A stretch of DNA of 64,000 nucleotides from Candidatus Marinacidobacterales bacterium (GCA_965224085.1 CBDCYI010000011.1:1543639-1607638); one strand, 5' to 3'; shown: positions 3,381 through 59,578, counted from the stretch's first letter. The notes: generated by a model from the letters alone, not told the origin. Program-made: numbers and translations.

Positions 3381-3414
3381 GCCCAGCCGCCCCCGCCCAG
3401 CCGCCCCCGCCCAC
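3381..3414. repeat. 14-nt direct repeat x2.4 (gcccagccgccccc) in divergent intergenic region
   Basis: Exact tandem copies at 3381-3394 and 3395-3408 plus a partial copy, between the DsbA-like gene start and the downstream secreted-protein gene start. Confidence 0.6.
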
Positions 3415-3441
3415 AAACTTGCTACAATCACACTAAGCGTT

Positions 3442-3854
3442 ATGTCGAGTGCAAGAATTATCGTCGCGCTCATCCTCGCGGCGTTGCCGGTCGCGGCTAG
3501 CCCGGCTGTCTTCGGAGAAAAACCCAAGCTCGTGCTCAAAGCGCCGAGGCTCCAGATGCTCAAACCCGGGCTGGCAGCGCAAGGGTTCGGCAAACGCGTC
3601 GACGTCCGAGCTCGTCTCGAAGGTGATCCTGACGATCCCGAGACCTACTATTGTCTTGACGAGATTTGGGATTGGGGTGACGGCACGGAGTCCGTGAGCG
3701 AGCCCGATTGCGACCCCTTTGAAGAGGGCACGGACCTCAAAATGAACTTCATGGATACCCATTATTTCGGCCCGGCCGGTGGGTCATCACTCTGGCGCTC
3801 ATGGAGGACGACGATGTCGTCCTCGAGGGACGTCTCGAGATCCGCATCTTTTAG
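3442..3854 (+). CDS. small secreted protein (signal peptide), apparent frameshift near 3785
   Basis: Begins MSSARIIVALILAALPVAASPA. After ...HYFGPAGG the protein-like reading continues in the +1 frame (VITLALMEDDDVVLEGRLEIRIF*). The shift is at a G-run (ggtggg). Confidence 0.4.
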
Positions 3855-4005
3855 CTCCAGGTGCTGCTGGTGACAAGCACGTCGGTACGGCGTTCGCTTC
3901 AGGCCTGGCCGAGCCGGTTTTAAACCTTTCCCGGAAAAGCCTCGTCATATCCGAATCAAGAGCGTGGCGGATGGGCCGCCATGTGGATGGCCGTCGGGAG
4001 GCTAA

Positions 4006-4619
4006 TTGAGTAATCTGAGCTCGGTGGCCAGCTTCGACAAGAGCAAACCGGCCCCGTTGGCGCGGCTGGACGCCCAGGAGAGGCGCGCCGAAGACGAGCG
4101 CCTCGTGGCGCGACTGCGGGCGGGAGATGGCGAGGCCTCGAGGCGCTCTATCGGCGTCACAGCTCGGGTGTCTTTGGCCTGGCGCTCAGAATGCTTCAAA
4201 ACCGCGCCGATGCCGAGGATCTGCTGCAGGAGATCTTTTTGCAGGCCTACGACAAAATCGACAAGTTCGAAGGCCGCTCCGCCTTCGGCACTTGGCTCTA
4301 TCGACTCGGCGTCAATCGCTGCCTCGACCATCTCCGGAGCCGTAGCGCCAAAGAACAGTCTCGAACGGAGCCCTTGGGCCCGACACTCCCCGGCCGAGCC
4401 GGAAGCGGCACCCGGAAGCTAGAGCTCGAACGCGCGATCGGGGAGCTTCCTCCCTCGAGCCGCGCCGCTTTCCTGCTCCACGACGTCGAGGGCTATGAAC
4501 ACAAAGAAGTGGGCGAGATCCTCGGAATCGCTGTGGGAACGTCGAAGTCCCTCGTCCATCGCGCGCGTATGAAACTACGGACACGTTTGTATCCAAGCGC
4601 CGCGGGAGAAACATCATGA
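4006..4619 (+). CDS. ECF (sigma-24 type) RNA polymerase sigma factor, interrupted by 1-nt frameshift near 4138
   Basis: Frame A gives ...RLVARLRAGDGEA. Frame B gives EALYRRHSSGVFGLALRMLQNRADAEDLLQEIFLQAY ... region 4 (ELPPSSRAAFLLHDVEGYEHKEVGEILGIAVGTSKSLVHRAR). One missing T in gag-gcc-t(t)c-gag would restore a single ORF of about 204 aa. Confidence 0.7.
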
Positions 4620-5572
4620 CAGAAGATGCATTCACCGAGCAGCTGAGCGATTACATCGACAGAGAGCACGGGCTGGGAGAGCGGGAAGCTCTCGAAAGTC
4701 ATCTCGAGCAGTGCACGGATTGTCGGACTGTGCTCGGGCAGCTACGTGCCGTACGCCGAGACGCGAAGACGCTCACGCGCCATGCCCCCGCCGAGCAGGT
4801 GTGGGTCGCCATTGCAGAATCTATCCGTACCGGCGAGCGCACCCGGTCGCGAAGGTCTTATTTTCACACCGGGCTCGCCGCGGCCGCCGCCGTCGTTGTC
4901 GGCGTGAGCCTCTTGGTCGCGCTTCGTCCGTCGAACGAGATTCGGATGGCCGACTTAGCGAACGACGATCCGGCTGCGCTCGCGAACTTGGTGACGGACG
5001 AGCTCCGAGCCGCGGAGATTCATTATGAAAACGCGATCAAGGGGCTCGAACAAATCATCGAGCACAACGAAGGCACGCTCCCGAACGAGCTGAACGGAAC
5101 GATGAACGAGAGTCTCGACGTCATCGAGCAGGCCATCACGGAGAGCCGTGAAGCCATGGCGACGGAGCCGGGGAGCTCGGCCGCCCAAGAAAGCCTTCTC
5201 GAAGCTTTCCGGCGTAAAGTCGATCTTCTTCAGAATACCATTCTGCTCATCAACGAAGTTCGCAAGGGCGAGGGTCAAAACGCCCTCGACTTGATAGACG
5301 AAATCTGTGGATCGGACGACCCATCGGATGAAACGAGTGCCAGACAAGAAAGACATGCCAGACAAGAAAGACATGAAAAAGATACGATTCACAACCACGT
5401 TACTGATTGGCGCCGTTCTGACGGCAGGCATGAGCGTCGCGCAGGACCGCGAAGAGCGGATCTCGCAGACGTTCGATATCGGCCCCAATGGAGAGTTTTC
5501 TCTTTCCAACATCTCCGGAGACATCCGTGTTTCTGGAACTTCCGGGAATCAAGTGACGATCGAGGCGGTTAA
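4616..5572 (+). CDS. anti-sigma factor (zinc-finger type, single TM, periplasmic domain)
   Basis: Start overlaps the sigma stop (ATGA). N-terminal HLEQCTDCR putative zinc-finger, TM segment LAAAAAVVVGVSLLVAL, then a helical periplasmic domain. The 3' end is uncertain; the ORF overlaps the next gene by about 200 nt. Confidence 0.6.
   Translation: MTEDAFTEQLSDYIDREHGLGEREALESHLEQCTDCRTVLGQLRAVRRDAKTLTRHAPAEQVWVAIAESIRTGERTRSRRSYFHTGLAAAAAVVVGVSLLVALRPSNEIRMADLANDDPAALANLVTDELRAAEIHYENAIKGLEQIIEHNEGTLPNELNGTMNESLDVIEQAITESREAMATEPGSSAAQESLLEAFRRKVDLLQNTILLINEVRKGEGQNALDLIDEICGSDDPSDETSARQERHARQERHEKDTIHNHVTDWRRSDGRHERRAGPRRADLADVRYRPQWRVFSFQHLRRHPCFWNFRESSDDRGG
5339..5374 (+). repeat. exact 18-nt tandem duplication (gccagacaagaaagacat x2) spanning candidate start codons of the DUF4097 gene
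   Basis: Unit at 5339-5356 repeats exactly at 5357-5374. It encodes (PDKKDM)x2 in the DUF4097 frame and (ARQERH)x2 in the anti-sigma frame. Confidence 0.85.
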
Positions 5573-6044
5573 ACGTCTTCATGGGCGCGGCGATCGTGAT
5601 CTTCTCAACAGCGTCGAGGTAGACATTTCCCACCAAGGCGATCGCATACGTGTCGAGACGCGTTACCCGCGCAATGAACGGCGCGGTGACGACGACCACC
5701 GGCATGGCCATGGCGGTGTCTCCGTCGACTATCGCGTCACCTTGCCCGTTGGGACAGAAGTCGAGATAGGCTCAGTCTCGGGCGATGTGATGCTCGAGGG
5801 AGTCGATGGCGAGACGAGCGTGACCTCCGTGAGCGGTGAGGTCGAAGTGAGCGACGTCGCGAACCTCGTGCAAGCGAAGTCGGTCTCCGGAGAAGTGGAC
5901 GTTCGTAACGCTCGTTCCGACGACGATGTCGATATCGCGAGCGTCAGCGGAGACGTCACGATCAACTCTATCGAGGCCGAAGAGCTCTCGATCTCGAGTG
6001 TCAGCGGTGACGTCCGCATCCACCTGGGCCACGTCCGAACGTGA
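5376..6044 (+). CDS. DUF4097-family putative adhesin / cell-envelope stress protein (LiaG-like)
   Basis: Signal peptide MKKIRFTTTLLIGAVLTAGMSVAQ. Repeated S-V-S-G-D/E-V beta-strand motifs are typical of DUF4097. It lies downstream of the sigma/anti-sigma pair. Upstream ATGs at 5307, 5355 and 5373 are alternative starts. Confidence 0.65.
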   Translation, partial: KKIRFTTTLLIGAVLTAGMSVAQDREERISQTFDIGPNGEFSLSNISGDIRVSGTSGNQVTIEAVKRLHGRGDRDLLNSVEVDISHQGDRIRVETRYPRNERRGDDDHRHGHGGVSVDYRVTLPVGTEVEIGSVSGDVMLEGVDGETSVTSVSGEVEVSDVANLVQAKSVSGEVDVRNARSDDDVDIASVSGDVTINSIEAEELSISSVSGDVRIHLGHVRT

Positions 6045-7515
6045 GCACGGGCTCCATCGTGTGTCCTCCGGTCGCCCAAACGACGAATGTGTGCGGAGAA
6101 AGGCGACGGCCAAGAAGACAGGCCGGGTTGCTGTCTTGGTCACCATAGAAGTGACGGAAATCCTCGAATGTGTGCGGAGAAAGGCGACGGCCAAGAAGAC
6201 AGGCCGGGTTGCTGTCTTGGTCACCATAGAAGTGACGGAAATCCTCGATCCAAGCGTTTCCGTCGGCGTCGCGGACGAGAGCTTCTTTCGCTTCCTGGAT
6301 CGTCATCTCGAATCCGGTGTGGGTTCGTACCGCCTCGACGAGGCTCTCGGGAGAGCCCTTCGCCTTGTCGAGAATGTAGTTGTAGGATGCGGATTGACGG
6401 CCGAGCGCCACCAGTTGCTCCCAAGCGGGATATCGATGGTGGGGCGCATAGCCGAGACCGCTCGGAAGCTCCCATCCCGAAGGGCGGCCGCCGAAGTCGC
6501 CATAGCTGAACGAGAACCCACCGGTGCCGTGATCCGCCGTCACCATGACGAGCGTGTCCGGATGCCGCGCCTGGAAATCGAGCACGGCCCCGAGCGCTTC
6601 ATCGAAGTCGATAATCTCGTGGAGCATCGTCCCGGCGTCGTTGTCGTGCCCGCCATAGTCGATGCGACCTCCTTCCACCATCAGAAAAAAGCCACCCTCC
6701 GCGCGTGAAAGCACGTCGAGCGCGGCCGACGCCATTTCCTTCAAGCTCGGCACCGACTCGAGCCCCATCGCTCGCGTATCCACCACGTAGGGCAGATGCG
6801 ACGCGGCAAAAAGGCCGAGCAGCTTATCCGCTTTTGGCGACGCTTCCGCGAGCCCCATGCGATCCGAGACGACGACATAACCCTTCGTCTTCGCTTCGGC
6901 GATGCGGTTCACGTCGTCCTGTCGATTCGAGCCACCGTCTACTTCTTCGACGATACCCGGCAGAAAATCCGAAACGGGCCGACCCGAGGGCACGAGCGCC
7001 CGAGCACCTCCTCCCAATAACACGTCGACGTCGTACCCGGTCAGCACGTCGTCCAGAATCGCGGGTTCGGGGTTGTAGCGCGACACTTGGTGTGCCGCGA
7101 AGGCCGCGGGGGTCGCGTGGGAGAGACGCATGTTAGAGACGAGCCCCGTCGCAAGACTACGTTTCTTGGACGCCTCCAGAATCGTCTCGACGACGTAGCC
7201 ATCGGAGCTCAAGCTTAACGTCTCGTTTCGGGCCTTCCGCCCCGTGGCCAGCTGCGAAGCCGCGGCGGCTGAATCGGTGACCGTGCTGCGATAAGGGGTT
7301 GGCATCGAATAGCCGGTGTTGCCGTCATTCATCACAACCTCGAGGTACAGTTTTCGGCCCTCCACCATGTTGGCGTATTGGAGGCCGAACGCGGTTTGAG
7401 CCGCACCGAGTCCGTCGCCGATGAGCAGGACCACGTTCTTTGCGCGAGGGGCCTCTCGCGCGCCCATCGGGACACTCGAGAGCAATATCGTCAGAACGAG
7501 CAAGAGCGAGCGCAT
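6001..7515 (-). CDS. alkaline phosphatase (PhoA family), secreted
   Basis: 504 aa with a signal peptide. Motifs GDGLG, DSAAAASQLATG, VTADHGTGG and C-terminal GGHT. Carries an in-frame 27-aa tandem duplication near the C-terminus. Confidence 0.85.
   Translation of the reverse strand: MRSLLLVLTILLSSVPMGAREAPRAKNVVLLIGDGLGAAQTAFGLQYANMVEGRKLYLEVVMNDGNTGYSMPTPYRSTVTDSAAAASQLATGRKARNETLSLSSDGYVVETILEASKKRSLATGLVSNMRLSHATPAAFAAHQVSRYNPEPAILDDVLTGYDVDVLLGGGARALVPSGRPVSDFLPGIVEEVDGGSNRQDDVNRIAEAKTKGYVVVSDRMGLAEASPKADKLLGLFAASHLPYVVDTRAMGLESVPSLKEMASAALDVLSRAEGGFFLMVEGGRIDYGGHDNDAGTMLHEIIDFDEALGAVLDFQARHPDTLVMVTADHGTGGFSFSYGDFGGRPSGWELPSGLGYAPHHRYPAWEQLVALGRQSASYNYILDKAKGSPESLVEAVRTHTGFEMTIQEAKEALVRDADGNAWIEDFRHFYGDQDSNPACLLGRRLSPHTFEDFRHFYGDQDSNPACLLGRRLSPHTFVVWATGGHTMEPVLTFGRGPGGCGRHR
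6085..6246. repeat. exact 81-nt tandem duplication inside phoA
   Basis: 6085-6165 is identical to 6166-6246. It encodes EDFRHFYGDQDSNPACLLGRRLSPHTF twice, in frame. Confidence 0.9.
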
Positions 7516-7595
7516 GATCGGTAAAAGCTCCTTCCCAAAAAGGGCCAGGTGACATCCATGGCGCGAGACATTCTATACAAGGCGCTGTTGAGCCA

Positions 7596-8276
7596 ATGCG
7601 ACGTTTCGATATTTTCGAGCCCCTTCCCGGAATCTGGTGCGTCCAGCATCGCCCGAGCAAGAGCACCGCCTACATTATCAAAACGTTCCCTGGCGCCGTT
7701 CTCATCGATACCGGGCCCGACGCATCCGCCGCCTCAGTGATGATGGAGCTTCAGGGCGCCCGCGTCGGGCTATCCTCCGTCCGGCTCTTAGCACTCACCC
7801 ACTGGCATTTCGACCAATCCGCAGGGGCGGCCGCGCTAAACAAGCGCTCGGGAACACGCGTGCGCTACGCGGAGGCGGAGGCTCTTTTTCTGACCGGTCA
7901 GCGCGAGGCGAGGTTCTGGGCACGCCAAAGGCACCCGAAGGTCTCGCCGATCACAGCCGACGGCTTCGTTATAGACGGTGAGACGCTCGAAGGCGGCCTC
8001 GAAGCCATCGCCACTCCCGGACATACCGACGGACACGTTGCCTACTACTTGGAGACACGAGGCATTCTCTTCGCGGGCGACGCCTTCACCGTGACGCACA
8101 AGGGCGAAGTAGAGGTCGACGACGAAGCGCGCGCGTCCGCGGCCCGCTGCCTCGAGCGACCTATCGAAGTTCTCTTGCCCCCCTATGGCCGCCCCGTCAC
8201 TAACCGTCGTGCCATCAACGCTCTGCGAGAACGACTGAGAAAGTTAAGTTCGGGCCCTACGCATCGAACGCGTTGA
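7596..8276 (+). CDS. MBL-fold metallo-hydrolase
   Basis: THWHFDQSAG (HxHxDH-type) motif, plus PGHTDGH and downstream His/Asp ligands. Confidence 0.8.
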   Translation: MRRFDIFEPLPGIWCVQHRPSKSTAYIIKTFPGAVLIDTGPDASAASVMMELQGARVGLSSVRLLALTHWHFDQSAGAAALNKRSGTRVRYAEAEALFLTGQREARFWARQRHPKVSPITADGFVIDGETLEGGLEAIATPGHTDGHVAYYLETRGILFAGDAFTVTHKGEVEVDDEARASAARCLERPIEVLLPPYGRPVTNRRAINALRERLRKLSSGPTHRTR

Positions 8277-9400: not shown

Positions 9401-10228
9401 GTGGCAGAGAAGTGGGCGAGGAGTAAAAAGGACGTCGGCATAAGTGGTTCTTCCGTTCGTGCCTCGCTCCGCGGCGCGTATCTGACCATTGCGGGCACTC
9501 TCGCGAGAGAGCCCAAAGGAGACTTTCTCCACTGCCTCTATCTGCACGGCGTTTACGACGATCAAGTCGAGAACTTCAGGTCCGTGCTCGACGCGCTACT
9601 CGATATCGGCCGCTTCATCGGGACTAGCGAAGTCTTCGACATCCTCGAAGATCGCGCCAAGCTGAACGGTCGCCTATTCCACTTGTCTTTCGACGATGGA
9701 TTCGACAACAACTATCGCAACGCTTTCCCGTCATTGTCGGAACGCGGCATTCATGCCGCGTTCTTCGTTCCCTCGACTCTCGTCGGCGCATCCAACGCTT
9801 TCGTCTTGGAACATTGGTGGGCGCCCGAGCAATCGCCGACCCGCTTCATGACGTGGAGTCAAGTTCGGGAGCTCTCGGATTGCGGTCACGAGATCGGAAG
9901 CCACACGCGCACGCATAAAAGACTGCGCTCCGAAGAACAACGTCCAGACCAGCTCCGCGATCAGATACGCGGATCGAAGCAGGAAATCGAAGACCAACTC
10001 GGCTCCGCGTGTCGATACATCGCATGGCCGTTCGGAACCGCGCGGGATATCGACGACGCGGCGCATAGAGAGATCATAGCGGCGGGCTATGACGGCAGCT
10101 TCAGCGCCGTTCGCGGATCGGCGTCACCGGAAACGTCCCGCTACTCGGTCCCGAGGCACCATTTTGAGGCCGATTGGAGCTGGCCGCACGTGCGTTATTT
10201 CGCGCTCGGAAATGGCGCCACAAGCTGA
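9401..10228 (+). CDS. polysaccharide deacetylase family protein (NodB homology domain)
   Basis: HLSFDDGF (TFDDG motif), HTRTH, WPFG motifs. Confidence 0.8.
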   Translation: MAEKWARSKKDVGISGSSVRASLRGAYLTIAGTLAREPKGDFLHCLYLHGVYDDQVENFRSVLDALLDIGRFIGTSEVFDILEDRAKLNGRLFHLSFDDGFDNNYRNAFPSLSERGIHAAFFVPSTLVGASNAFVLEHWWAPEQSPTRFMTWSQVRELSDCGHEIGSHTRTHKRLRSEEQRPDQLRDQIRGSKQEIEDQLGSACRYIAWPFGTARDIDDAAHREIIAAGYDGSFSAVRGSASPETSRYSVPRHHFEADWSWPHVRYFALGNGATS

Positions 10229-10995
10229 TGCGCATCGTCATCATCACCGCATTGCGCCACGGCACGGCCAGTCGTTGCCTTCCTTCGCTCGCAGCGCATC
10301 GCGAGATCGATGTCGCGCTGGTTATTCGTACCGAGCGGCAATACCGCACGCGGGGACGAAAGCTGCGGCGCGACGTCAAGAAGATCCTGCGCATCGGCCC
10401 CATCGGCGCTCTCATGGGACGCCACTTGCGTTCGTGGTACGAGGGTCCGAAAACGGAGGATCTCGAGGCTTTGGCGCGCCGTGAAGGCGTGCGTTACGAG
10501 CAAACGCCACTTGCGAACGGAGATGAAACGGTCGAGCTCATGCGATCGGCCGACGCCGATCTCGGGCTATCCCTCGGAAACGGGTATTTGTTCCCAAAGG
10601 TCTTTCGCGTCCCGAAGCTCGGCACGGTCAACGTCCACGGGGAGGTTCTACCGGAATTTCGCGGAGGCTCGAGCGTCATCTGGCCGATCTACGAAGGCGT
10701 CCGGGAAACAGGGCTTACCGTCCATCGCATGGACGAGAGGATCGACACAGGCGAGATTCTCCATCGGGAGCGCTTCCCCATCGCTTTCAAGGACAGTCTG
10801 CGCGAAACGGTGGAGCACAACGCGGCCGAGATCTCGCGACGTATTCCGGGAGCGCTCGTCCACGTGATCACGCACTTCGACGAGCTCGTCGCGAAACAAG
10901 TACCCCAAGGCATCGGACGCAACTATACTACCCCCACATTCCGCCAATATCGCCGCATGGTACGCCAACACGACCGACTTTCCTCTGGCCTCTAA
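10228..10995 (+). CDS. formyltransferase family protein (Fmt/ArnA N-domain-like)
   Basis: NVHGEVLPEFRGGSSVIWPIYEGVRETGLTVHRMDERIDTGEIL matches formyl_trans_N. Its start overlaps the previous stop (TGATG). Confidence 0.75.
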   Translation: MRIVIITALRHGTASRCLPSLAAHREIDVALVIRTERQYRTRGRKLRRDVKKILRIGPIGALMGRHLRSWYEGPKTEDLEALARREGVRYEQTPLANGDETVELMRSADADLGLSLGNGYLFPKVFRVPKLGTVNVHGEVLPEFRGGSSVIWPIYEGVRETGLTVHRMDERIDTGEILHRERFPIAFKDSLRETVEHNAAEISRRIPGALVHVITHFDELVAKQVPQGIGRNYTTPTFRQYRRMVRQHDRLSSGL

Positions 10996-11172
10996 CTAGT
11001 TCCTGTCCAGAAACACCATAACTTGTGGTGTACGAGAGGCCTATCGAAGATGTGGGTATTATACGTTTTCAGTCGGCACCTCGTAGGCTCGGAAGCGAAT
11101 GAAAATCTTGGACGAAACGAGAGGCGAATCGTCAGCAATCCATGGCTATAAACGCAGTAAGAGCAATCATTA

Positions 11173-12654
11173 TTATCGTAATAGGTGCCTTGCCATTACC
11201 AACAGGTTGCAGGTGATGATGGAACTCCATACGTAGGATTTGAAAGAAGGCAATGAGCGCCATGTGCATCGGTCGAGACCAAAGACTCGTTTCAAGAACG
11301 AAATGACGCCTTCGATTCCGCAGCGAAATCGCCGTAGGCGTTGATAGACCCAGGAACTCTTGACCATATCGGTCACCGCGAAGTGAGCCTTGGTAAAGGC
11401 AACATCTTCAACTCCCTTGCCTTTGATGGCTTCCAAGTTTGCCTTTGAAGAAAACGCGCCATCGTAGGCAACCTGGCGCGGGGCCCGTTCGTAGAGTTCG
11501 ACTTGACGGTCGATCATGGTTTCCGCGAGAGTTGAATCGGACGGATTCCCATCCAAGATCACGCAATCCAAAATCATCGAGGACGAGCCACCAGTCAAAC
11601 ACACCTTGTGACCGTAGAGAGTCTCGCGCCGGTCTTTGCGAATAATGTCGGTGTGTTCTTCGAAGATCGAAACGACCTTTTCCTCCGCAGGCACACGCTC
11701 TTCATCAATCACTCTACGCCGAGTTTGGTTGATGACTTTTTCGGTGAGGACGAGAAAGTGCTTAAAATCCGCGGCGATCTTCTCCGCACTCGCTCGCTTC
11801 ACCGGCTCGGTCAAGCCGGACTCGTCCAACTGGTCTGCAACGCGTTGAGCGGAGCGATAGGTTTCTTCCGACACCTTCAGTAGATCTCGATAGACGCGAC
11901 GCCTTTGTTCCTTATCCTTCGCGTTTAGAACTCCCAGTCGACGTCTCTTCGCTCGACGCGTTCGATTGCCGAAGACCACTACTGTACCCAGCAGTTCGCG
12001 AGTTCGGCACATGAGGCGAGTGAGAACTCGGACGCAGTCATAAAGAAGCTCGGAGTCCGTAGGAGAATGAATATTCGACTCCACTACCGTGCAGTCCACT
12101 CGTACTTTTCTTCCTTTTTCGATCGCGGTCTTCTCGGCAACACTCACCAACTCTCGGTTGATTTTCTCCAGCGTTTCGAACTTCACGGCTTTGATGTTTG
12201 CTGCTAGGGTCGACTTCGACGGGCTCGGCTCTATGATGCCGAGCTGGCAAAACGTCCGATAGCTTCGAGAGTCTGCCATCGATTTTCTCCAGCGTTTCGA
12301 ACTTCACGGCTTTGATGTTTGCTGCTAGGGTCGTGACGGGCTCGGCTCTATGATGCCGAGCTGGCAAAACGTCCGATAGCTTCGAGAGTCTGCCAAGTGA
12401 AACGCCAGCTCCCGATAGGTGAACTGATTCAGCTGCTTGACCAACAACGCCCGGAGAACCTGCTCCGCGCTCATTCCCCCACGACCAACATCGCTCCCTG
12501 CCGATGGGGTGACCGACCTCAGGTCTTGCAGTACCAGCTCATTGAGCTTAGGATGGGCATCGAGCAGCGATGATATCGTTTCGAGCTCGCGTGCGTGCTC
12601 CAGCTCCAGCCAGGGCTCGCGAAGGCTTGGTTGTGGGTTGATCGTTTTTCGCAT
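11173..12654 (-). pseudogene. IS5-family DDE transposase ORF interrupted by ~118-nt internal tandem duplication
   Basis: The two ORF pieces share the duplicated peptide ADSRSYRTFCQLGIIEPSPS...TLAANIKAVKFETLEKI. Removing one repeat unit would reconstitute a single ORF of about 455 aa. Confidence 0.6.
12161..12395. repeat. imperfect tandem duplication (~120 + ~115 nt) inside transposase gene
   Basis: Unit gattttctccagcgtttcgaacttcacggctttgatgtttgctgctagggtcg...gagagtctgcca occurs twice. The copies differ by a 4-nt indel (acttcgac vs tgac) and the length is not a multiple of 3. Confidence 0.85.
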
Positions 12655-12861
12655 TTAGGGCTGGTCTCCTTTGGAGTTAAGTCGTTTAGAATCTGCGTTT
12701 TTGTCGACTCGATACTAAACGACACTCCCTCAGAAGGCTAGCCCTAAATTTGCGATTACCCCTTTTTTCTCAACCTCTTACACCTGTCAGGACGGGTACT
12801 AACTAACCAGCCAGAATCGTGGATTCCGTTCATGTTCTAGAGATCTATCTGAAGCGCCGCT

Positions 12862-36008: not shown

Positions 36009-36986
36009 TTAACGATTGGAGTCCTTTATCGCCCCGAGCGACTCCATCGACTCCATCGACTCCATCGACTCAATGATGCGTAGGGCAAGCTCCAACGCGC
36101 GTGTGCCATCCGCGCCGGTCACTCGGGGACTTCGACCCTCGGTCACCGATTCGAGAAAGTCTTCAAGTTCTCGTTTGAGCGGCTCTTCGTTGACGAGGGT
36201 CAGCTCTTTTCTCTCGATGTCGGGCTGCTCGCCAACGCCTTGGAAGATTCGGTAGCGGATAGCCTCTTGACTTTGGTAGTCGAGCGAAACGTAGCAATCG
36301 CGCTCGAAAACCCGAAGCTTTCGCACCTTTTCCTGCGAGACCCGGCTTGCAGTGATGTTGGCGACCGCCCCCCCTTGGAAGCGAAGACGTGCGTTGGCGA
36401 TATCTACGCGCGGTGTCAGCACTGGGACACCGACGGCTTCGAGAGATACGACTTCCCTCCCCACGAGCGACATGACGACGTCGAGATCATGGATCATCAA
36501 GTCCAGCACGACGTCGATGTCGAGACTGCGCGGGCTGAAGGAGGCGAGACGGTGAACCTCGATGAAGCGCGGATCCTTCCGCTGGCTCAACAAGGCCTCG
36601 ACCGCCGGGTTGTGACGCTCGGTGTGCCCCACAGCGAGGCACAGACCTCTATCCGCAGCCGCTTTCGTCATGCGCTCGGCCTGTGCTCGGGACGAGGCAA
36701 TCGGTTTTTCTACGAGCACGTGGATCCCGGCTTCGAGAAGCTCGAGCGTCACCGCCTCGTGATCGACCGTCGGGACCGCCACGCTCGCGGCGGAAACGTC
36801 CTTCACGAACTCCCGGAAATGGGTGACACCGCGAACCCCGTAGCTTGCCGCGACCCTCTGAGCGCGCTCGAGATCAGAATCGGCAACACCCACGAGCTCG
36901 GCACCGTCGAGCTCGGAGAAGACACGCGCGTGACGCGAGCCGAGCTGCCCGACCCCCACTACGGCCACTTTGAGCCGCTCGGTCAA
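36009..36986 (-). CDS. Gfo/Idh/MocA-family NAD(P)-dependent oxidoreductase (GnnA-like position in lipid A cluster)
   Basis: KVAVVGVGQLGSRHA Rossmann motif, EKP motif. C-terminal (SME)x3 repeat. Confidence 0.75.
   Translation of the reverse strand: MTERLKVAVVGVGQLGSRHARVFSELDGAELVGVADSDLERAQRVAASYGVRGVTHFREFVKDVSAASVAVPTVDHEAVTLELLEAGIHVLVEKPIASSRAQAERMTKAAADRGLCLAVGHTERHNPAVEALLSQRKDPRFIEVHRLASFSPRSLDIDVVLDLMIHDLDVVMSLVGREVVSLEAVGVPVLTPRVDIANARLRFQGGAVANITASRVSQEKVRKLRVFERDCYVSLDYQSQEAIRYRIFQGVGEQPDIERKELTLVNEEPLKRELEDFLESVTEGRSPRVTGADGTRALELALRIIESMESMESMESLGAIKDSNR
36040..36075. repeat. 9-nt tandem repeat x4 (gactccatc) at 3' end of oxidoreductase gene
   Basis: gactccatc appears three times followed by gactcaatg. 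It encodes ESMESMESMESL on the minus strand. Confidence 0.85.
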
Positions 36987-37827: not shown

Positions 37828-38679
37828 TCAGTCCGCGTCCGAGTCCTCACGGCCGCGCTTGACGATAACGCCTCGCTCGGAGCCACGCACGAAATCGATG
37901 ATCGCGCGCACATCGGGGCTCACGTCGCACGCATCGGGATCATCACGCCCGTCAATATCATCAGGCCCATCAAGCTTGTCGAGCGCCTGAGAGACGTTGA
38001 GGCTCGATTGCTGGAGCGTGCGGAAAGCGGAGCGGATCTTTTCGATGCGGTCGCGGCCGAATTCCCGTCGCTCGAGACCGACTGTGTTGGCCCCATAGAG
38101 TCGCGCACGATTGCCGACGGTTTTCGAAAACGGCAAGACATCTTTGGTGACGACCGAATAGCCTCCTACGAAAGCGTAGGTGCCCACGCGGCAGAACTGA
38201 TGGACGCCGGAAAAAGCGCTCACCGTCGCGTGATCCTCCACGGTCACATGGCCGCCCAGGGTAGCCGCATTGCCGAAGATGGTGCCGCTGCCGATCTGGC
38301 AATCATGCGCCACATGGGTGTAGGCCATGAATAGATTTTTGTCGCCGATGACCGTGCGACTGCCACCGAGAGCGGTACCGCGATGAATCGTGACGAACTC
38401 GCGAAAAACGTTCTCGTTGCCGATCTCGAGAGTCGAGACCTCGCCTTCGAACTTCAGGTCCTGGGGCTCGAGACCAATCGAGGCAAACGGGAAAACGCGA
38501 CACCGCTCGCCAATCTTCGTATAACCGTCGATGACGACATTCGAGTCGATGACGGTGTCCCGTTCGATCTCGACGTGCTCACCAATGACGGTATAGGGCC
38601 CGACGCGAACGCCCTCGGCGAGCCGCGCTCTATCGTGCACGACAGCCGTCGGGTGACACTCCACAGCAGCGGTGCTCAT
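37828..38679 (-). CDS. lpxA: acyl-ACP--UDP-N-acetylglucosamine O-acyltransferase
   Basis: Left-handed beta-helix hexapeptide repeats, about 283 aa, adjacent to fabZ. Confidence 0.9.
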   Translation of the reverse strand: MSTAAVECHPTAVVHDRARLAEGVRVGPYTVIGEHVEIERDTVIDSNVVIDGYTKIGERCRVFPFASIGLEPQDLKFEGEVSTLEIGNENVFREFVTIHRGTALGGSRTVIGDKNLFMAYTHVAHDCQIGSGTIFGNAATLGGHVTVEDHATVSAFSGVHQFCRVGTYAFVGGYSVVTKDVLPFSKTVGNRARLYGANTVGLERREFGRDRIEKIRSAFRTLQQSSLNVSQALDKLDGPDDIDGRDDPDACDVSPDVRAIIDFVRGSERGVIVKRGREDSDAD

Positions 38680-45551: not shown

Positions 45552-46841
45552 TCATTCGAATCTCAAAGCTTCCGTAATAACCAATTGAGCGGCCCTTCGC
45601 GCGGGGTAGAGTGTCGCAGCGAAACACATCAGAGGGGCCGCGATGACCACCAGCATGAAATCCGCGGGGAGCAGCTTGAACGGCACCCACGCCACCTGGT
45701 AGACGTCCTCGGGGATCGAGATCACGCGATAGTGATCGAGCACCCAGGAGATCGTAACGCCCAGCGCCGCTCCCACGGCGGTTCCCGCCACACCGATGAT
45801 GGCGCCCTGCAACATGAAGATGCGCATGATGCTCTTGGCGCTCGCCCCCATCGATCGAAGAATGGCGATGTCCCGTGTCTTGTTCATGACGATCATGATC
45901 TGGCTCGCGATGATATTGAGAGCGGCCACACCCACGATGAAGCCGATGAAGATCGTCGTCACCACCTTCTCGACCCAGAAGGCGGAAAAAAGACTACGGT
46001 TCGTTTCCTTCCAGTTCATCGAGCCGTACTCGCCACCAATCGCTCTCATAACGTCCAACTCGACGCGCCCGACGTCGAAGATATCCAAAACTTTCGTCTC
46101 GACATACATCGCCTCATCCCCGACACCGAGAAGCCGCTGCGCGTCGGGAAGATGCAGAAGCGCCCACGAGTTGTCGAAGTTATAGAGCCCGAGCTGGAAA
46201 ATACCCACGACGCGAAAGCTTCGCGTGCGCGGCAGCATGCCGAACGGGCTTAGATGGCCTTCGGGCGACGTGACTTTCATGATATCCCCGATGAAGACGC
46301 CGAGCGTCATCGCAAGCTCTTCCCCGACGATGATAGGCGGCGGCTCGTTCGCAAGCTCCTCACCCGAAACATTTCCCTCAGACTTTTCGGGCTCGGACAG
46401 GCGCATCAGCTCTCCGACCAACATTTTCTGCCCGAACTCGGTGACGGTGGCTTCGAGCTCCGGCTCGATGCCCTTGAGCGTCACGAGCCCGGAGCCGGTC
46501 GCGCTCGAGACGAGCGCTTTGCCGTACAACACGGGGGCAGCCCCCACGACGGCATCGATACCGCCGAGCTTCGCCATAACGTCCCGATAATCCGCGAAGG
46601 CTTCCCCTCCACCTTTGTAGATGCTCAGATGGGAGGCGGCTCCGAGGATGCGTGAGCGCAGCTCGCCTTGCATCCCCGTCAAGATCGCGAGTGCGATGAG
46701 CAGGATCATGACACCCACAACGACGCCTAGAGTGGAGATGGTCGAGATCACTGCAATGAAGAGCTGACGTCGTTGCGCGAAGAGGTAGCGCAGCGCGATC
46801 CTCAGCTCGAAAGGCATGTTATTCCTCGCCCTCGCGCGCAT
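45552..46841 (-). CDS. lipoprotein-releasing system permease LolC/E family (FtsX-like)
   Basis: MacB-like periplasmic domain plus an FtsX C-terminal 4-TM region. Confidence 0.8.
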   Translation of the reverse strand: MRARARNNMPFELRIALRYLFAQRRQLFIAVISTISTLGVVVGVMILLIALAILTGMQGELRSRILGAASHLSIYKGGGEAFADYRDVMAKLGGIDAVVGAAPVLYGKALVSSATGSGLVTLKGIEPELEATVTEFGQKMLVGELMRLSEPEKSEGNVSGEELANEPPPIIVGEELAMTLGVFIGDIMKVTSPEGHLSPFGMLPRTRSFRVVGIFQLGLYNFDNSWALLHLPDAQRLLGVGDEAMYVETKVLDIFDVGRVELDVMRAIGGEYGSMNWKETNRSLFSAFWVEKVVTTIFIGFIVGVAALNIIASQIMIVMNKTRDIAILRSMGASAKSIMRIFMLQGAIIGVAGTAVGAALGVTISWVLDHYRVISIPEDVYQVAWVPFKLLPADFMLVVIAAPLMCFAATLYPARRAAQLVITEALRFE

Positions 46842-48354
46842 CCGCTGCAGCGGAGCGCCCGCTCTCAGGCCTCAGGTGCGGGAACAAGATGACGTCGCGG
46901 ATGGAGTGCGAGTCCGTGAACAGCATGACGAGCCGATCGATACCGAGTCCCTCGCCTCCGGTGGGCGGGAGGCCGTGCATCAAAGCCCGCACATAATCCT
47001 CGTCCATATCGTGCGCTTCCGCGTCACCGCGGGCGCGCTCTTCGAGCTGCGCCTCGAAGCGGGCTCTCTGATCGTCGGGATCGTTGAGCTCGCTGAAGCC
47101 GTTCGCAACCTCCATTCCAGCGATGAACAGCTCGAACCGCTCGACGAACACCGGATCGTCGCGCTTCTTCTTGGAGAAAGGAGAGACATCTACCGGATAG
47201 TCTGTTACGAAAGTCGGCTGTACGAGTGACGCCTCGATGAGATGATCAAAGAGCACGCTCAGGAGCTTTCCCCACGGGGCGCCCTCGTCTAGGCCGAGCT
47301 CGAGCTTGCGGCCAAGCTCGACGAGCACTTCGCGCTCCCGCAACTCCTCCGGCCCGATTTCGAGGTCGTGTATGCGGAGCGCTTCGACGACGCCGTCGAG
47401 CATCGCGAGGCGCCGGTACGGCGGTGTCAGATCGATCTCGACCTCTCCGTAGCGAAGCGGCTTTCCGTCGTGGACGTTTTTCTGGAGCTCGGCCAGAAGC
47501 TCTTCTGTGAGCGCCATCATACTCTCGACATCACTATAGGCTTCATAGAACTCGAGCATGGTGAATTCGGGGTTGTGGCGCGTCGAGATTCCCTCATTGC
47601 GGAAATTGCGATTGATCTCGTAGACCTTTTCGAGCCCGCCCACGGTCAGTCGCTTGAGATAGAGCTCGGGGGCGATGCGCATATAGAGCTCGATCCCGAG
47701 AGTGTTGTGAAACGTTTTGAACGGCCGCGCGGTGGCACCACCGGCGATGGGCTGAAGCATCGGAGTCTCGACTTCAATATATCCGTGTGCGTCGAAGAAA
47801 TCTCGGATCCGGGCGACAACGCGGCTGCGGGTGACAAAAATGGCGCGGGAATCTTCGTTCGCAATGAGGTCCAGATAGCGTTGGCGGTAGCGGATCTCCA
47901 CATCGGCCAGGCCATGCCATTTTTCGGGGAGCGGCTTGAGAGCTTTGGCGAGAAATGTGAGTTTTTCGACTCTGAGCGTGAGCTCGCCTGTTTTAGTCCG
48001 AAACAAAGGTCCCTGGACACCGATGAAATCTCCAATGTCGAGCTTCTTGTAAATGGCGAAACCCGGATCCTCGACCGTGTCCTTGCGTACGTAGATTTGG
48101 AGCTTGCCTGCACCGTCGCTCAATCGCAGAAATCCTGCTTTCCCGAATTTGTTCAGGGCCACGATGCGCCCGGCCGTTCGGACCTGAACCGGATCTTTAT
48201 CGAGCTCCTCCTCGCTCTTCGTATCGAACGTGGTGAACGCCTCCGAAACAGTATGCGTCCGGTCGAAGCGAGTCGGATAGACGTTCACTCCGAGCTCTCC
48301 GAGCTCCTGTCTCTTCGTGCGCCTTTCCTTTTCGATACGGTCTTCGACACCCAC
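46819..48354 (-). CDS. lysS: lysine--tRNA ligase (class II)
   Basis: OB-fold anticodon-binding domain plus a class II core (motifs 1-3). GTG start is 1 nt after the nusB stop; the longer Arg-rich N-terminal extension of the ORF is rejected. Confidence 0.9.
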   Translation of the reverse strand: MGVEDRIEKERRTKRQELGELGVNVYPTRFDRTHTVSEAFTTFDTKSEEELDKDPVQVRTAGRIVALNKFGKAGFLRLSDGAGKLQIYVRKDTVEDPGFAIYKKLDIGDFIGVQGPLFRTKTGELTLRVEKLTFLAKALKPLPEKWHGLADVEIRYRQRYLDLIANEDSRAIFVTRSRVVARIRDFFDAHGYIEVETPMLQPIAGGATARPFKTFHNTLGIELYMRIAPELYLKRLTVGGLEKVYEINRNFRNEGISTRHNPEFTMLEFYEAYSDVESMMALTEELLAELQKNVHDGKPLRYGEVEIDLTPPYRRLAMLDGVVEALRIHDLEIGPEELREREVLVELGRKLELGLDEGAPWGKLLSVLFDHLIEASLVQPTFVTDYPVDVSPFSKKKRDDPVFVERFELFIAGMEVANGFSELNDPDDQRARFEAQLEERARGDAEAHDMDEDYVRALMHGLPPTGGEGLGIDRLVMLFTDSHSIRDVILFPHLRPESGRSAAADAREGEE

Positions 48355-48773
48355 TATCTGCTCTCCGATGTCGCTTCGATATTGGCACAAACGGCGTCGA
48401 GCACGCCGTTCACGAAACTGACCGCGTCGGGCGCGGAGAAGCGCTTCGTGATCTCGAGCGCCTCGTTGATGACGACCCTTTTGGGGGTCTCGGTATCGAG
48501 AAACTCGTAGACCGCAATTCTCAGAATGTTGCGATCGACGGCCGCCATCCGAGAAAGCCTCCAGCGGTCGGACTGCGCGGTGATGAGCGCATCGATCTCT
48601 TCTACGCGGCGGATCGTTTCTTCCGCGAGCGAGCGACCGAAATCCCGCGCCTCTTGGCTCGGATTTCGGATCTCGTCCATCGACCAAACGACCTCTCCGA
48701 CGGACGCACGGGTGACATCCCATTGGTAAAGCATTTGAACTGCGAACTCACGCCCTTTCCTGCGCACCCCCAT
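48354..48773 (-). CDS. nusB: transcription antitermination factor NusB
   Basis: REFAVQMLYQWD... Confidence 0.9.
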   Translation of the reverse strand: MGVRRKGREFAVQMLYQWDVTRASVGEVVWSMDEIRNPSQEARDFGRSLAEETIRRVEEIDALITAQSDRWRLSRMAAVDRNILRIAVYEFLDTETPKRVVINEALEITKRFSAPDAVSFVNGVLDAVCANIEATSESR

Positions 48774-54399: not shown

Positions 54400-54421
54400 G
54401 TGTCGTTTTCCCCGTTTTCTA

Positions 54422-55261: not shown

Positions 55262-55653
55262 TTGACATTCCAAAAGACCTCGTCGAGCACGCCACGCGCG
55301 TCCGCGAGAATGCAGTGGCGGATTTCTCCAAGTTCAAAGTCGGCGCAGCACTTCGCAGCAACGGAGGCGACATCTTTACTGGCTGCAACGTCGAGAACGC
55401 TACCCTCGGACTGACCATATGCGCCGAGCGCGTGGCGCTCTTCAAAGCGCTCTCAGAAGGCGCCCGGGCCTTCACCGAGATCGTCGTCGTCACCGCCGCC
55501 GACAAACCGACGCCACCCTGCGGCGCCTGCCGGCAAATGCTGTGGGAGTTTTGTGGCGACATCCCCGTCTACATGGTGAGCACCAACGGAACGAACGACA
55601 CGATGAAGATGAGCGAGCTGTTTCCGAGAGCGTTCGATAAATCGGGCCTGTGA
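55258..55653 (+). CDS. cdd: cytidine deaminase
   Basis: CAERVA...PCGACRQ zinc ligands. Confidence 0.9.
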   Translation: MIDIPKDLVEHATRVRENAVADFSKFKVGAALRSNGGDIFTGCNVENATLGLTICAERVALFKALSEGARAFTEIVVVTAADKPTPPCGACRQMLWEFCGDIPVYMVSTNGTNDTMKMSELFPRAFDKSGL

Positions 55654-55718
55654 GGCTGTGACGGAAGTTGACGTCCGTGCTGCCGGCTACCCGTGCGTTT
55701 CGCCACGTCCCAGCTGAC

Positions 55719-56353
55719 TCAATCTCGTACGGCGACAAACGGTAGTTGACGGTAGCGTTGGTTGTCGTCTAGGCCGTAGCCGACGACGAGGCGATCGGGG
55801 ACTTCGAAGCCGACATAATCGACAGCAACGTCGAACTCGCGCCGGGACGGCTTCGATAGAAACGCGGCCACCTTTAATGTAGCCGGCTCGCGCGAACGGA
55901 GCATGTTGAGAAGATAGTTGAGCGTGAGCCCTGTATCCGCAATGTCCTCGACGACGATCACGTCGCGGCCCGCGAGCGACAAGTCCAGGTCCTTCGTCAG
56001 CTGAACCTCTCCGCTCGAAGTTTTGCCCTTCCCATAGGATGACACCGCGAGGAAGTCGAGCGTCACCGGCACTTCCATCGCTCGCGCGAGATCGGCGAGA
56101 AAAGTATAGCGCCTTTCAGCACGCAGATGAGATGGACCGTCTTCCCTTGATAGTCCGCGCTGATTTCTTTAGCCAGCTCGCGGACGCGCCTCGCGATTTG
56201 TTCTTCGCTGATCAGGACTTCCATTCTCTCTCTAGTGTCTAACTCGCTCACCGAGCGCGGGCGGCAGCTCGCGCGAAGTGTAAGGCGATTAGGGAAGTGT
56301 AAGGCAGGGACGTGTAGGGACAGGAGGGGATAAGGGGATCTCCGCCTCTCCAC
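55719..56353 (-). pseudogene. hpt: hypoxanthine phosphoribosyltransferase split by -1 frameshift in an A4/T4 homopolymer (about 56100-56103)
   Basis: The 5' piece gives EVLISEEQIARRVRELA...GKTVHLICVLKGA. The 3' piece gives (FLADLARA)MEVPVTLDFLAVSSYG...VVEDIADTGLTL...VGYGLD. Inserting one T on the sense strand restores a single Hpt ORF. Confidence 0.75.
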
Positions 56354-56416
56354 ACATCCCCACCGCTCGTTTTCTGATACATCGACGGGCGGTAGGTCTT
56401 CACCACTCTGAGCGGA

Positions 56417-57349
56417 TCAGCCTTGGGCGAACAACTCGAACGTCACGGTAATGACGCCGTAGGCTTCGATCGGCCGGCCCTCTTTGAGGGCGGGCTTCCA
56501 CCTCCAGAGTTTGGCATTATCTTTAGCAGCCTCGACGCAATACCGAAGGGATTTCAAGACCCGGACGACTTCGGTGGTCCCGTCGAGCTTCACGAGGACT
56601 TCGAGCAACACTTCCCCTCGCACCATCTTTTCGCGGGCAGCGGCCGGATAGTCGGGGCTCGGAGGCTTGAAAACAAGAGCGGGCTCGATATCCCACGCGC
56701 CCGGCGAGTAATCGCCGCCGCCGAAACCGCCTCCGCGCCCGGGGCCGACCGCCCAGCCTTCGCCGCTACCCACGCCCGTGCCTTCGCCGCCGCCGACACC
56801 GCCATCGGTGCCTGCGCTCGGTCGGTTGTCGAGGCCGCCGAAATCCCGCATGTCATCCAAAGACAATCCGGGGAACTCTTGCTCATCCGGCGAGAACACC
56901 CCAGCGAAAATGATATCCGTATCGGTAGGTAAATCCGGAACGTTCAAGTCGTCGAAACGGAGCTTTGGCGGCTTTCGGGGCGCCACTGGCGCGCGACGCG
57001 GCTCCGGCTCCACCTCGGGCTCCGGCGCCTCCGGCGGTGGTCTTGTGCGGATAAAGGCGGAAATCCGCTCCCCACCCGAGCCGCCACCACCGCCACCGCT
57101 CCCGCGCCCACTCCCGCCTGGCTCATAGAAGCGGACGAGCACCCCTCCCGCTTCCATCGGATCTTGGGACATCCAGCTAGCTATGGGCGGGAGAAGCATG
57201 AAGAGGAAGACGAGAACATGCACACCCCCGGCGGCCGAGAGAGATTTTGTGCGTTCGTCCCAACCGAGCTTTGGCGCACTCTCCTCGGAGAGGCGTTCCA
57301 TTCCGGAAAAGAACTCCGGACCTTGGCTCATGTCACCCATCCTGGCCAA
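56417..57349 (-). CDS. TonB-family energy transducer
   Basis: TM anchor, Pro/Gly-rich spacer and a C-terminal TonB_C domain. Confidence 0.7.
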   Translation of the reverse strand: MARMGDMSQGPEFFSGMERLSEESAPKLGWDERTKSLSAAGGVHVLVFLFMLLPPIASWMSQDPMEAGGVLVRFYEPGGSGRGSGGGGGGSGGERISAFIRTRPPPEAPEPEVEPEPRRAPVAPRKPPKLRFDDLNVPDLPTDTDIIFAGVFSPDEQEFPGLSLDDMRDFGGLDNRPSAGTDGGVGGGEGTGVGSGEGWAVGPGRGGGFGGGDYSPGAWDIEPALVFKPPSPDYPAAAREKMVRGEVLLEVLVKLDGTTEVVRVLKSLRYCVEAAKDNAKLWRWKPALKEGRPIEAYGVITVTFELFAQG

Positions 57350-57490
57350 ATGTTAGCACGGCGGCCAGGACGACGCCCGTCGCCGGCCATGAACTTGCGT
57401 CCTACGGGTCGGCCCCGACGGACCGCGGATTTCCGTCGCCGATTCAAGGGCTTGCAAGAAATCAAGGGGCGTCATAGATTAAGCCGAGTG

Positions 57491-58120
57491 GCCGACGACA
57501 AACGCCGCATCCTGACGGGCGAGGATGTCCAATCGATTCCTGAAGGAGGTATTCTCGACATCACGCCGGGCACGTTGCTCACCGACATCGCTCGTGAGTG
57601 GGTCGACCGGCGCAAGATCCGAATCGTCGAACGCATGCGCTCGGGCGACGACGCCATCGCCGCAGTGAAGCTCGCGATCGGCTCTGACCATGGCGGCTTC
57701 GAAATGAAAAGCGCCCTCAGGGAATACCTCGACGTGCTAAAAGCGAGTTATATCGACTATGGCACCCGTTCGAAAAGAGCGGTCGACTACCCGGACATCG
57801 CCCACGCCGTCGCTCTCTCCGTCGCCCTCGGACAGGCGAAGCAAGGGATCATCATCGACGGCGCCGGTATCGGCTCAGCCATCGTCGCTAACAAAGTCCC
57901 TGGCATTCGCGCAGCAGCGTGCTACGAGGAAGCGGGCGCTATGAACGCACGCGAGCACAACGACATCAACGTGCTCACGCTCGGCTCCAACCTGATGCTC
58001 CCCGAAAAGCTGCGGCCCATCGTGCGCATCTTCATGAGCGCCGAGCACCGCGAGCCCCGTCACAAGAACCGGGTGGCGAAGATCATGGCGGTCGAAAAGA
58101 AGTATTATCGACCCGTATGA
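57491..58120 (+). CDS. rpiB: ribose-5-phosphate isomerase B (RpiB/LacA/LacB family) with ~55-aa N-terminal extension
   Basis: [13 protein letters not shown]...[12 protein letters not shown]...[17 protein letters not shown]...EHNDINVL. The start is uncertain (GTG near 57491); upstream ORF extensions are Arg-rich antisense of tonB. Confidence 0.75.
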
Positions 58121-58950
58121 GCTGGGACCTGGAACGTCTCACAGACGCGGTGACCGAGGCTGTGCTCTTGGAGCTCGGCGCCGCCGATCGTCCATGCAGC
58201 TGCCATCATCTCGATCGCAGCCAGTGTCCCGACGTGATGCAGCCGCTCGTCGATCGCGGCGCGGAACGGTTTGGCCTAACGGCTTCCGCTCCTCATCGAA
58301 GCCTCGCCGCTCTCATCGACCACACGCTTCTCAAACCCGACGCCACCGAAGAGCAGATCCGAACGCTGTGCGCCGAAGCGGCCACGCATCGATTCGCGAC
58401 TGTATGTATTCAGCCAACCTGGGTGCGGCTCGCCGCCCAGCTTCTTCGCGGAACGAGCGTCGGCGTTTGCACCGTCTCCGGATTTCCGCTTGGCGCCAAT
58501 AGTCCGGACGTCAAAGCCTACGAGACCCGTCGCGCAATATTCGACGGCGCCAATGAAGTCGACATGGTGATCAATATCGGCGCACTCAAGTCGATAGACT
58601 ACCGCACCGTCGAAGACGACATCCGCGGAGTCGTCGAAGCGTGCCGAGAAGGATCCGCGCTGAGCAAGGTCATCATAGAGACGGCGCTTCTCACCGAAGA
58701 CGAGAAAGTCAAAGCATCCACGCTCGTGGCTGCGGCCGGCGCCGACTTCATCAAGACCTCGACCGGATTCGGGCCCGGAGGCGCAACCGTCGAAGACGTC
58801 GCGCTCATGCGGGACATCGTCGGCCAGAAAATGGGCGTCAAAGCCGCAGGTGGCGTCCGCGATCGCGCGACCGCAAAACAGATGGTGGATGCCGGAGCAA
58901 CCCGGATCGGCGCGAGTGCGGGGATCCGCATCATTCAGGCGAGCGACTAA
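58117..58950 (+). CDS. deoC: deoxyribose-phosphate aldolase with ~55-aa N-terminal extension
   Basis: DHTLLKP...FATVCIQP...GFPLG...KVIIE...[11 protein letters not shown]...VKAAGGV. The N-terminal extension contains CSCHH...C. Confidence 0.85.
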
Positions 58951-59578
58951 GAGCCCGACTCGCTTGCTCGTAGTCCTCTGGCGTATCGATATCGACGCAA
59001 ACTCCCGGATCCTCGACAGGTATCTCGAGTACTTCGTCGTGGTGGCGCGCGAGCAAAGACTTCCCGCCCTGATCGCCGACGAGGGTCAGAAACTCCTCGA
59101 CAAGCTCCGCGACAAAGAGCACAGGATGCCCCTGCTCGCCTCGATAGACCGGATGGGCGATGCGCGCACCGACTTCGTCGAAGGTGGCCGTGAGCGTGCG
59201 GATCGTCTCAGGCTTCACGAGCGGTTTGTCGGCGAGTGCTACGAGCACGATGCGCGTTTCTTCGGGCAAGCGCTCGAGCCCGCATCGGAGCGAGCTCGCG
59301 AGTCCGTCGTTGCTGCCAGGATTTATTACCACCTCGACGCGCTCATCATCTTTAAATAGTTTGAATGGTTTAAATGGCTTGAATGGTTTATGAGGCTCAC
59401 AAAGCTCGCTCGGAGACTCGCCAGGCGAAGCGACGACGACGAGAACACGATCAAGCTCGGCGGCCAACAAATTGCGGAGGCTCCTCGACAGCATCGTCTC
59501 GCCGCCGAAAGCGAGATCGAGCTTCGGACGCCCCATTCGGCGCGATGCGCCCGCCGCAAGAAGTACCGCGACGCGCAC
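58931..59578 (-). CDS. MobA-like NTP transferase, YgfJ/MocA-like molybdenum-hydroxylase accessory protein
   Basis: [16 protein letters not shown]-terminal motif. Lies directly downstream of yqeC. Confidence 0.7.
59351..59390. repeat. 9-nt tandem repeat x4 (ttgaatggt-like) inside ygfJ-like gene
   Basis: tttaaatag ttgaatggt ttaaatggc ttgaatggt. Encodes [14 protein letters not shown] on the minus strand. Confidence 0.8.

Follow-up and report, generated by a model that had tools for sequence, protein, structure and literature searches.

Short tandem repeats and two duplications private to one assembly in a 64-kb region of an uncultured marine acidobacterium

Genomic context and comparison sequences

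A stretch of 64,000 nucleotides (nt) from a Candidatus Marinacidobacterales bacterium (GCA_965224085.1 CBDCYI010000011.1:1543639-1607638) was analysed for tandem repeats within and between its genes. This whole stretch is referred to below as the window. Six repeats had been picked out in an original prediction made from the DNA alone. They comprise four short arrays and two larger duplications, of 81 nt in an alkaline phosphatase gene (phoA) and of 119 nt in an insertion sequence (IS). The six are, with fairly high confidence, mixed products of ordinary processes, with no special mutational regime behind them. The window has a G+C content of ~59% across its length and carries ordinary chromosomal genes: leuS, lptE, holA, the fab and lpx clusters, bamA, clpB, lysS and genes of nucleoside salvage. 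No tRNA genes and no Rfam matches were found in the window. The nearest GTDB species representatives are metagenome-assembled genome (MAG) chromosomes named 'Candidatus Marinacidobacterales bacterium' (OZ240210.1; PhoA 88% identical), and Vicinamibacteria is the annotation of more distant homologues. The window belongs to an uncultured marine acidobacterium that is kin to these MAGs. A literature search for 'Marinacidobacterales' found the name in no paper.

Assemblies of the same species were located by exact-protein look-ups and have a nucleotide identity of 99.7 to 100% to the window. An 8.7-Mb contig in the European Nucleotide Archive (ENA; ERZ25072076, ctg246125_29x_l) provided loci L004, L008, L009, L016, L018 and L027, which jointly span positions 1-62578 of the window. 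L005 is a 27-kb ENA contig from a different assembly. Logan assemblies of the raw runs ERR13602196 and ERR13605531 provided L002, L003, L006, L007, L010, L017, L019, L020 and L028. The names of the related ENA contigs (ctgN_29x_l) are in a style which we take to be that of a long-read assembler. Relatives L001 and L029 have ~90% nucleotide identity to the window. L011, L012 and L023 have ~86-93% nucleotide identity and 83-88% amino acid identity in PhoA, while L013 is more distant, with 63% amino acid identity in PhoA.

The window and the 8.7-Mb contig were compared over ~62.5 kb. They differ by ~7 single nucleotide polymorphisms (SNPs) and by zero 1-nt indels. The remaining differences are the 81-nt duplication, the structure of the IS and a 19-nt indel at 56275-56293. 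The 504-amino-acid PhoA product of the window and its 368-amino-acid transposase fragment are not on record, so the window comes from a further, separate assembly. A 634-amino-acid open reading frame (ORF) at 46819-48723, also not on record, was rejected as the result of a wrong gene start.

Inventory and density of tandem repeats

All six predicted repeats were recovered in place by Tandem Repeats Finder (TRF) and direct reading. A perfect, G+C-rich array of 14 nt × 2.5 lies at 3379-3413 in a divergent intergenic spacer of 113 nt. A perfect array of 18 nt × 2.1 lies at 5338-5375 on the plus strand, in the N-region of a DUF4097 protein. The 81-nt duplication, at 6084-6248 in the minus-strand alkaline phosphatase gene, is two perfect copies followed by three more matching bases (CGA). 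The 119-nt duplication occupies 12160-12395 in an ISNCY-family transposase gene on the minus strand and was reported by TRF as ~117 nt × 2 with 96% identity. Both 9-nt arrays are in frame and on the minus strand. The first (36039-36071) is a perfect 9 nt × 3.7 array in the part of a Gfo/Idh/MocA oxidoreductase gene for the C-terminal tail, where it encodes ESMESMESM. The second (59351-59390) gives a MobA-like NTP transferase a KPF repeat in one of its loops and can be read either as 9 nt × 4.4 at 77% or as 18 nt × 2.2 at 90%. TRF also found an imperfect 22 nt × 2.5 array (85%) that had been omitted from the prediction. It is intergenic, at 2184-2237, between the end of a DsbA-like gene and the start of a Ser/Thr kinase gene. 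One further match, 18 nt × 1.9 at 37939-37973, is in an LpxA-like hexapeptide-repeat acyltransferase and is the intrinsic six-residue periodicity of that protein, not a recent duplication.

The repeats had been described as mostly perfect and in frame. The 14-nt, 18-nt, 81-nt and ESM arrays are perfect, the KPF array is at 77% and the 119-nt repeat is ~96% identical and locally not frame-preserving. The latter had been called a repeat of about 118 nt in two copies; the repeat is real but is a 119-nt duplication with 2 nt of filler and a 4-nt deletion-insertion (delins).

Repeat density was measured as TRF loci with a score of at least 50, with overlaps merged. The window has nine such loci, and five of the nine are within its first 12.4 kb. 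In 100 dinucleotide-preserving shuffles 0.41 ± 0.57 loci reached this score, so the repeats of the window are real and greatly exceed chance. The original prediction had considered the density unusual and had proposed a comparison with related genomes. This was run on 125,459 nt of relatives, a small set drawn mostly from around one same gene, except for L029 and the short contigs L021 and L024. It gave no significant excess at this score: the window has 0.141 loci per kb and the relatives 0.120 loci per kb (15 loci), a ratio of 1.18 (one-sided binomial p = 0.42), and the density is ordinary for the clade. The ratio was 2.3 (p = 0.11) among arrays scoring at least 60 and 3.9 (p = 0.10) among perfect arrays. 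Without the two larger duplications the ratios drop to 0.9 (score of at least 50), 1.6 (at least 60) and 2.9 (perfect). Every relative has private perfect arrays of its own, for example 14 nt × 4.3 in L011 and 16 nt × 3.6 in L029. Elsewhere, the density at a score of at least 50 was 0.02 per kb in 100 kb of Escherichia coli K-12 and 0.33 per kb in a high-GC actinobacterial locus.

Short repeats

The short arrays were identical wherever they could be compared within the species. L004 and L005 each carry the 14-nt, 18-nt and 22-nt arrays without a single base difference. The same holds for the ESM array in Logan locus L007 and ENA loci L008 and L016, and for the KPF array in Logan locus L010 and ENA loci L009 and L018. 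No copy-number variation was found among same-species assemblies at any of these five arrays. Because the 14-nt, 18-nt, ESM and KPF repeats recur in ENA contigs and Logan assemblies, they are not assembly artefacts, one of the two origins that the original prediction had offered. Strains do not differ in how many copies they have. The four are now fixed and have a stable copy number.

In relatives at ~88-90% identity these repeats are absent or shorter, which makes them lineage-specific duplications. The spacer with the 14-nt array is 22 nt longer in the window than in L001. The 18-nt array sits in a 27-nt in-frame insertion relative to L001, which encodes PDKKDMPDK (MKRV-PDKKDMPDK-KDMKK) and lies in the N-region preceding the signal peptide of the DUF4097 protein. 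The same array is also within the read-through tail of an anti-sigma factor ORF. In protein alignments with relatives the ESM repeat is a species-specific gain of 12 amino acids in the C-terminal tail of the oxidoreductase. The KPF repeat is likewise a species-specific gain of 12 amino acids, in a MobA-like nucleotidyltransferase loop that already differs in length from one relative to another.

Slipped-strand tandem duplications and short in-frame repeats in prokaryotic genes have reportedly been reviewed by Mrazek et al. in 2007, Treangen et al. in 2009 and Zhou et al. in 2014. The repeats in the window resemble them in having head-to-tail copies, lengths that are multiples of three in coding DNA, positions in loops, tails or intergenic DNA, a lineage-specific distribution and 2-3 nt of microhomology at the junctions. 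The four short duplications would have arisen by replication slippage after the split from the relatives at ~88-90% identity. Their survival is put down to positions at which additional sequence does no harm: a promoter spacer, the N-region ahead of a signal peptide, the C-terminal tail of one protein and a surface loop of variable length in another. Selection would act as a filter on slippage, with coding DNA retaining multiples of three and intergenic DNA tolerating any length.

Alkaline phosphatase gene

The alkaline phosphatase gene (6001-7515, minus strand) is truncated and also contains the 81-nt duplication, which adds 27 amino acids in frame. The extra copy is missing from eight PhoA homologues, and the segment is single-copy in L004, L005 and L006. 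The duplication junction was not found in JGI contigs. The last ~25 residues of PhoA are missing as a result of a deletion at 6022-6025, which measures 437 nt against L005 and 502 nt against L001 and removes the 3' ends of the convergent phoA and DUF4097 genes. The deletion junction has 4 nt of non-templated filler (ACCT, 6022-6025) and no microhomology, and looks like a product of end joining. The deletion is carried by the window and L004 and not by L005, L001 or L012. It is therefore polymorphic among strains that are 99.7% identical. The 81-nt duplication begins 60 nt from this junction, and one Logan contig starts exactly at the junction (6026).

ISNCY element

An ISNCY-family (IS5-like DDE) insertion sequence with Pfam domains DDE_Tnp_1 and DUF772 lies at 10996-12801 on the minus strand. 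The NCBIfam ISNCY model NF033593 gave 433.5 bits against a cut-off of 325, scored on the intact copy in L004, and the window element is the same as the L004 copy (>99.8% identity). The ends were read directly as TAGTTCCTGTCC... and ...GGACGGGTACTA and form imperfect terminal inverted repeats. The site holds one broken copy in the window, a tandem intact pair in L004 and no ISNCY element in L005 and L001. At the same intergenic site L005 (13401-13696) and L001 (4401-4709) have ~296 nt left of an IS200-like (Y1) transposase gene. This remnant gave way to the ISNCY element or elements, and IS traffic has hit the site repeatedly. As in tandem (IS)2 dimers of ISNCY/IS5-like elements, a DUF772 and DDE_Tnp_1 transposase is combined with imperfect inverted repeats and with absent, single and dimeric states among strains. 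Unlike such elements, the window copy has an internal duplication that inactivates the transposase.

Copy 1 of this duplication is 119 nt long (12160-12278). It is followed by the filler 'tc' (12279-12280) and by copy 2 of 115 nt (12281-12395). Copy 2 bears the 4-nt delins at ~12334, 53 nt from the junction, and the net gain is 117 nt. The transposase is split into ORFs of 109 and 368 amino acids. Neither the duplication nor the 4-nt change is present in either IS copy of L004. One Logan contig breaks 26 nt into the IS (11021). Formation of the window IS by a 1571-nt deletion within an L004-like tandem dimer is geometrically possible but was not adopted. Three positions tell the two IS copies of L004 apart, and they misfit, as the window agrees with copy A at 11050 and with copy B at 11164 and 11480. 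In the adjoining formyltransferase gene (10228-10995) a C to T SNP at window position 10966 (13371 in L004) turns Gln247 into a stop in the 8.7-Mb contig, giving a product of 246 amino acids compared to 255 in the window.

Origin of the two larger duplications

The 81-nt and 119-nt duplications were found only in the window's assembly, and both lie in DNA that had already lost its function and is structurally unstable across the population. That both are real, very recent and selectively neutral is close to an even proposition, with a slight lean towards real. The 81-nt duplication would then be microhomology-mediated, and the 119-nt duplication would have an end-joining-type junction with filler, like the 437-nt deletion junction nearby. 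Being private to one assembly, they may still be artefacts. The alternative, that they are false duplications introduced by metagenome assembly or polishing at structurally strain-variable sites while the other four repeats are real, is a serious one and falls a little short of even probability. The window is otherwise base-perfect against independent assemblies, with the zero count of 1-nt indels noted above, which argues for real duplications. The three additional matching bases of the 81-nt duplication point the same way: they are typical of slippage and have a 1/64 chance under blunt concatenation, and the 81-nt period is not the 84-nt full overlap that simple concatenation of overlapping ends would leave. 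Two assemblies validate the filler-bearing junction of the 437-nt deletion, and the organism therefore does make such junctions. Both duplications are also in DNA that is free of selection. Concatenation through a k-mer overlap was rejected as the source, since the 81-nt duplication has its additional matching bases, the 119-nt duplication has filler and a delins, and no single k fits both.

Several points weigh against real duplications and, in part, against ordinary processes as the source of all six repeats. For natural divergence, the ratio of two private tandem duplications to so few SNPs is high. Both are absent from all other same-species assemblies and their predicted products are those missing from the record. 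Their sites coincide with the 437-nt deletion polymorphism and with IS copy numbers of 0, 1 and 2, a strain heterogeneity of the kind that confuses assemblers, and the Logan contig breaks at 6026 and 11021 show graph ambiguity. The irregular 119-nt junction, with its filler and nearby delins, could mirror low-coverage consensus ends. The density figures are also compatible with a modest (2-4×) excess of high-scoring or perfect arrays (p~0.1) in the small comparison set. False duplications, haplotyping errors and unsupported indels are documented in the output of long-read metagenome assemblers, metaMDBG and metaFlye among them (bioRxiv 10.1101/2025.04.22.649783). The two duplications resemble the false duplications of that report in being private to one assembly, at strain-variable sites and, for the 119-nt case, inside a repeated IS. 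They differ in size and character, as those reported are mostly >200 bp and were detected by read clipping, compared to 81 and 119 nt here with microhomology at one junction.

It is also possible, though rather unlikely, that both private duplications and the filler-bearing deletion are real marks of one active end-joining or template-switch process. It would be at work on dead DNA (pseudogenes and IS dimers) in a natural population, over the time in which a few SNPs per 60 kb accumulate. Junctions with filler nucleotides are left by non-homologous end joining in bacteria (Ku/LigD), and filler can also arise by template switching. Filler without microhomology was found at ACCT (6022-6025) and at 'tc' (12279-12280). 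The four non-templated bases of the deletion and the two filler bases of the 119-nt junction resemble those of Ku/LigD junctions. If both duplications are real they would, with the deletion, illustrate on a small scale how end-joining-type rearrangement occurs naturally in an uncultured acidobacterium. The practical use of the case lies in quality control: neither the 27-amino-acid insertion in PhoA nor the broken transposase should be relied on, or passed on to protein databases, before reads confirm it.

Mutational process

The other origin offered by the original prediction was an active slippage or duplication process, for example through a repair deficiency. In a trivial sense this stands, as the short repeats are lineage-specific slippage products, but no unusual or currently active process is seen. 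Repair deficiency was not borne out: the density equals that of relatives, there are zero 1-nt or microsatellite indels over the 62.5 kb, and the short arrays are invariant. Loss of mismatch repair chiefly raises indels in repeats of 1-4 nt, not duplications of 14-120 nt. The corresponding mutator signature, an excess of 1-4-nt indels in homopolymers and microsatellites, was not seen in the comparison with the 8.7-Mb contig. A lineage with a raised rate of slippage or duplication genome-wide, through a mismatch-repair or exonuclease deficiency for instance, is therefore very improbable. The nominal 2-4× ratio of high-scoring or perfect arrays to those of relatives would fit such a lineage, as would several 1-nt frameshifts fixed in the species (in an extracytoplasmic function (ECF) sigma factor gene and hpt). 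Against this, the density at a score of at least 50 is the same as in relatives, and the window was chosen for its repeats, which is an ascertainment bias.

The lack of small indels and of copy-number variation in the short arrays argues against contingency loci as well as against a mutator of the mismatch-repair type. It is hardly credible that the 9-nt and 18-nt in-frame repeats are phase- or antigenic-variation loci under selection for hypermutability. They do form head-to-tail arrays of short units within coding regions, as variable-number tandem repeats (VNTRs) and contingency loci do, and are otherwise like other slipped-strand repeats. Unlike VNTRs and contingency loci they show no difference in copy number between strains. 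Copy changes would not switch a surface or virulence gene, as the units are multiples of three in a tail, a loop and a signal-peptide N-region. The hosts are cytoplasmic enzymes of housekeeping type (the Gfo/Idh/MocA oxidoreductase in the lpx cluster and the MobA-like transferase) and not surface antigens, and the KPF array is already degenerate. Ordinary processes remain the preferred explanation for the six repeats. All the phenomena are of known kinds: slippage repeats, polymorphic ISs, decaying pseudogenes and possibly assembly error. The biological weight of the repeats is small, and even a striking list of perfect tandem repeats in one window can be no more than what is normal for a G+C-rich genome with ISs.

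Decaying 5' region and other strain or species differences

The first 12.4 kb of the window is a decaying accessory region. The ECF sigma factor gene (4006-4619, plus strand) lies in two frames in a tblastn comparison, owing to the loss of 1 nt at ~4138. The frameshift is common to the window, L004 and L005, and the gene is intact (207 amino acids) in L001, L012 and L023. A 10-nt deletion has taken away the stop of the anti-sigma factor gene, whose frame now runs on for 76 codons within the DUF4097 gene. The decaying operon bears the 18-nt and 81-nt repeats, and the whole of it is missing in L011 and L013.

The hpt gene (hypoxanthine phosphoribosyltransferase, ~55719-56220, minus strand) has a 1-nt deletion (TT to T) near 56109. 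The same deletion is present in the 8.7-Mb contig and in a Logan contig, and the gene is intact (168 amino acids) in the outgroup L029. The hpt gene is a genuine species-level pseudogene. The 19-nt strain indel (56275-56293) is intergenic, upstream of the frameshifted hpt, and consists of the 12-nt direct repeat GCCTTACACTTC plus 7 nt. It was rejected as a third private duplication because its units have diverged (14 of 19 positions identical). Loss by slippage in the other strains is the likelier event; the outgroup L029 is without the whole segment and so does not set the polarity. The indel lies in a species-specific stretch of ~115-135 nt (~56245-56375) between a tonB-like gene and hpt, which is not in L029 and contains degenerate CCTTACAC-type repeats.

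The Ser/Thr-kinase/HAD gene is a single ORF of 581-585 amino acids in the window and L004. In L005 it contains ~1.66 kb of extra sequence (1411-3071), corresponding to window position 1010/1012.

A gene with SurA_N_3 and DsbA/thioredoxin-like domains lies at 2273-3328 on the minus strand. It has a continuous frame of 351 codons with a single in-frame TGA at 2702-2704, and gene callers give products of 208 and 69 amino acids. The TGA falls exactly on the first Cys of a CxxC motif (VEYSDFQ-TGA-PYC) and is conserved in L001, L005, L011, L012, L013 and L023. The region was considered as a further pseudogene and rejected as such on account of its single frame and the conserved TGA at the CxxC cysteine. 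The gene is probably a predicted UxxC selenoprotein rather than a pseudogene. The NCBIfam model 'Rcas_1661 family thioredoxin-like (seleno)lipoprotein' gave a sub-threshold match (128.9 bits against a cut-off of 190). A conserved hairpin with a GGGUCGGUCCGGCCC core is present 3' of the TGA, and L013 has one G to A change in it that preserves a pair.

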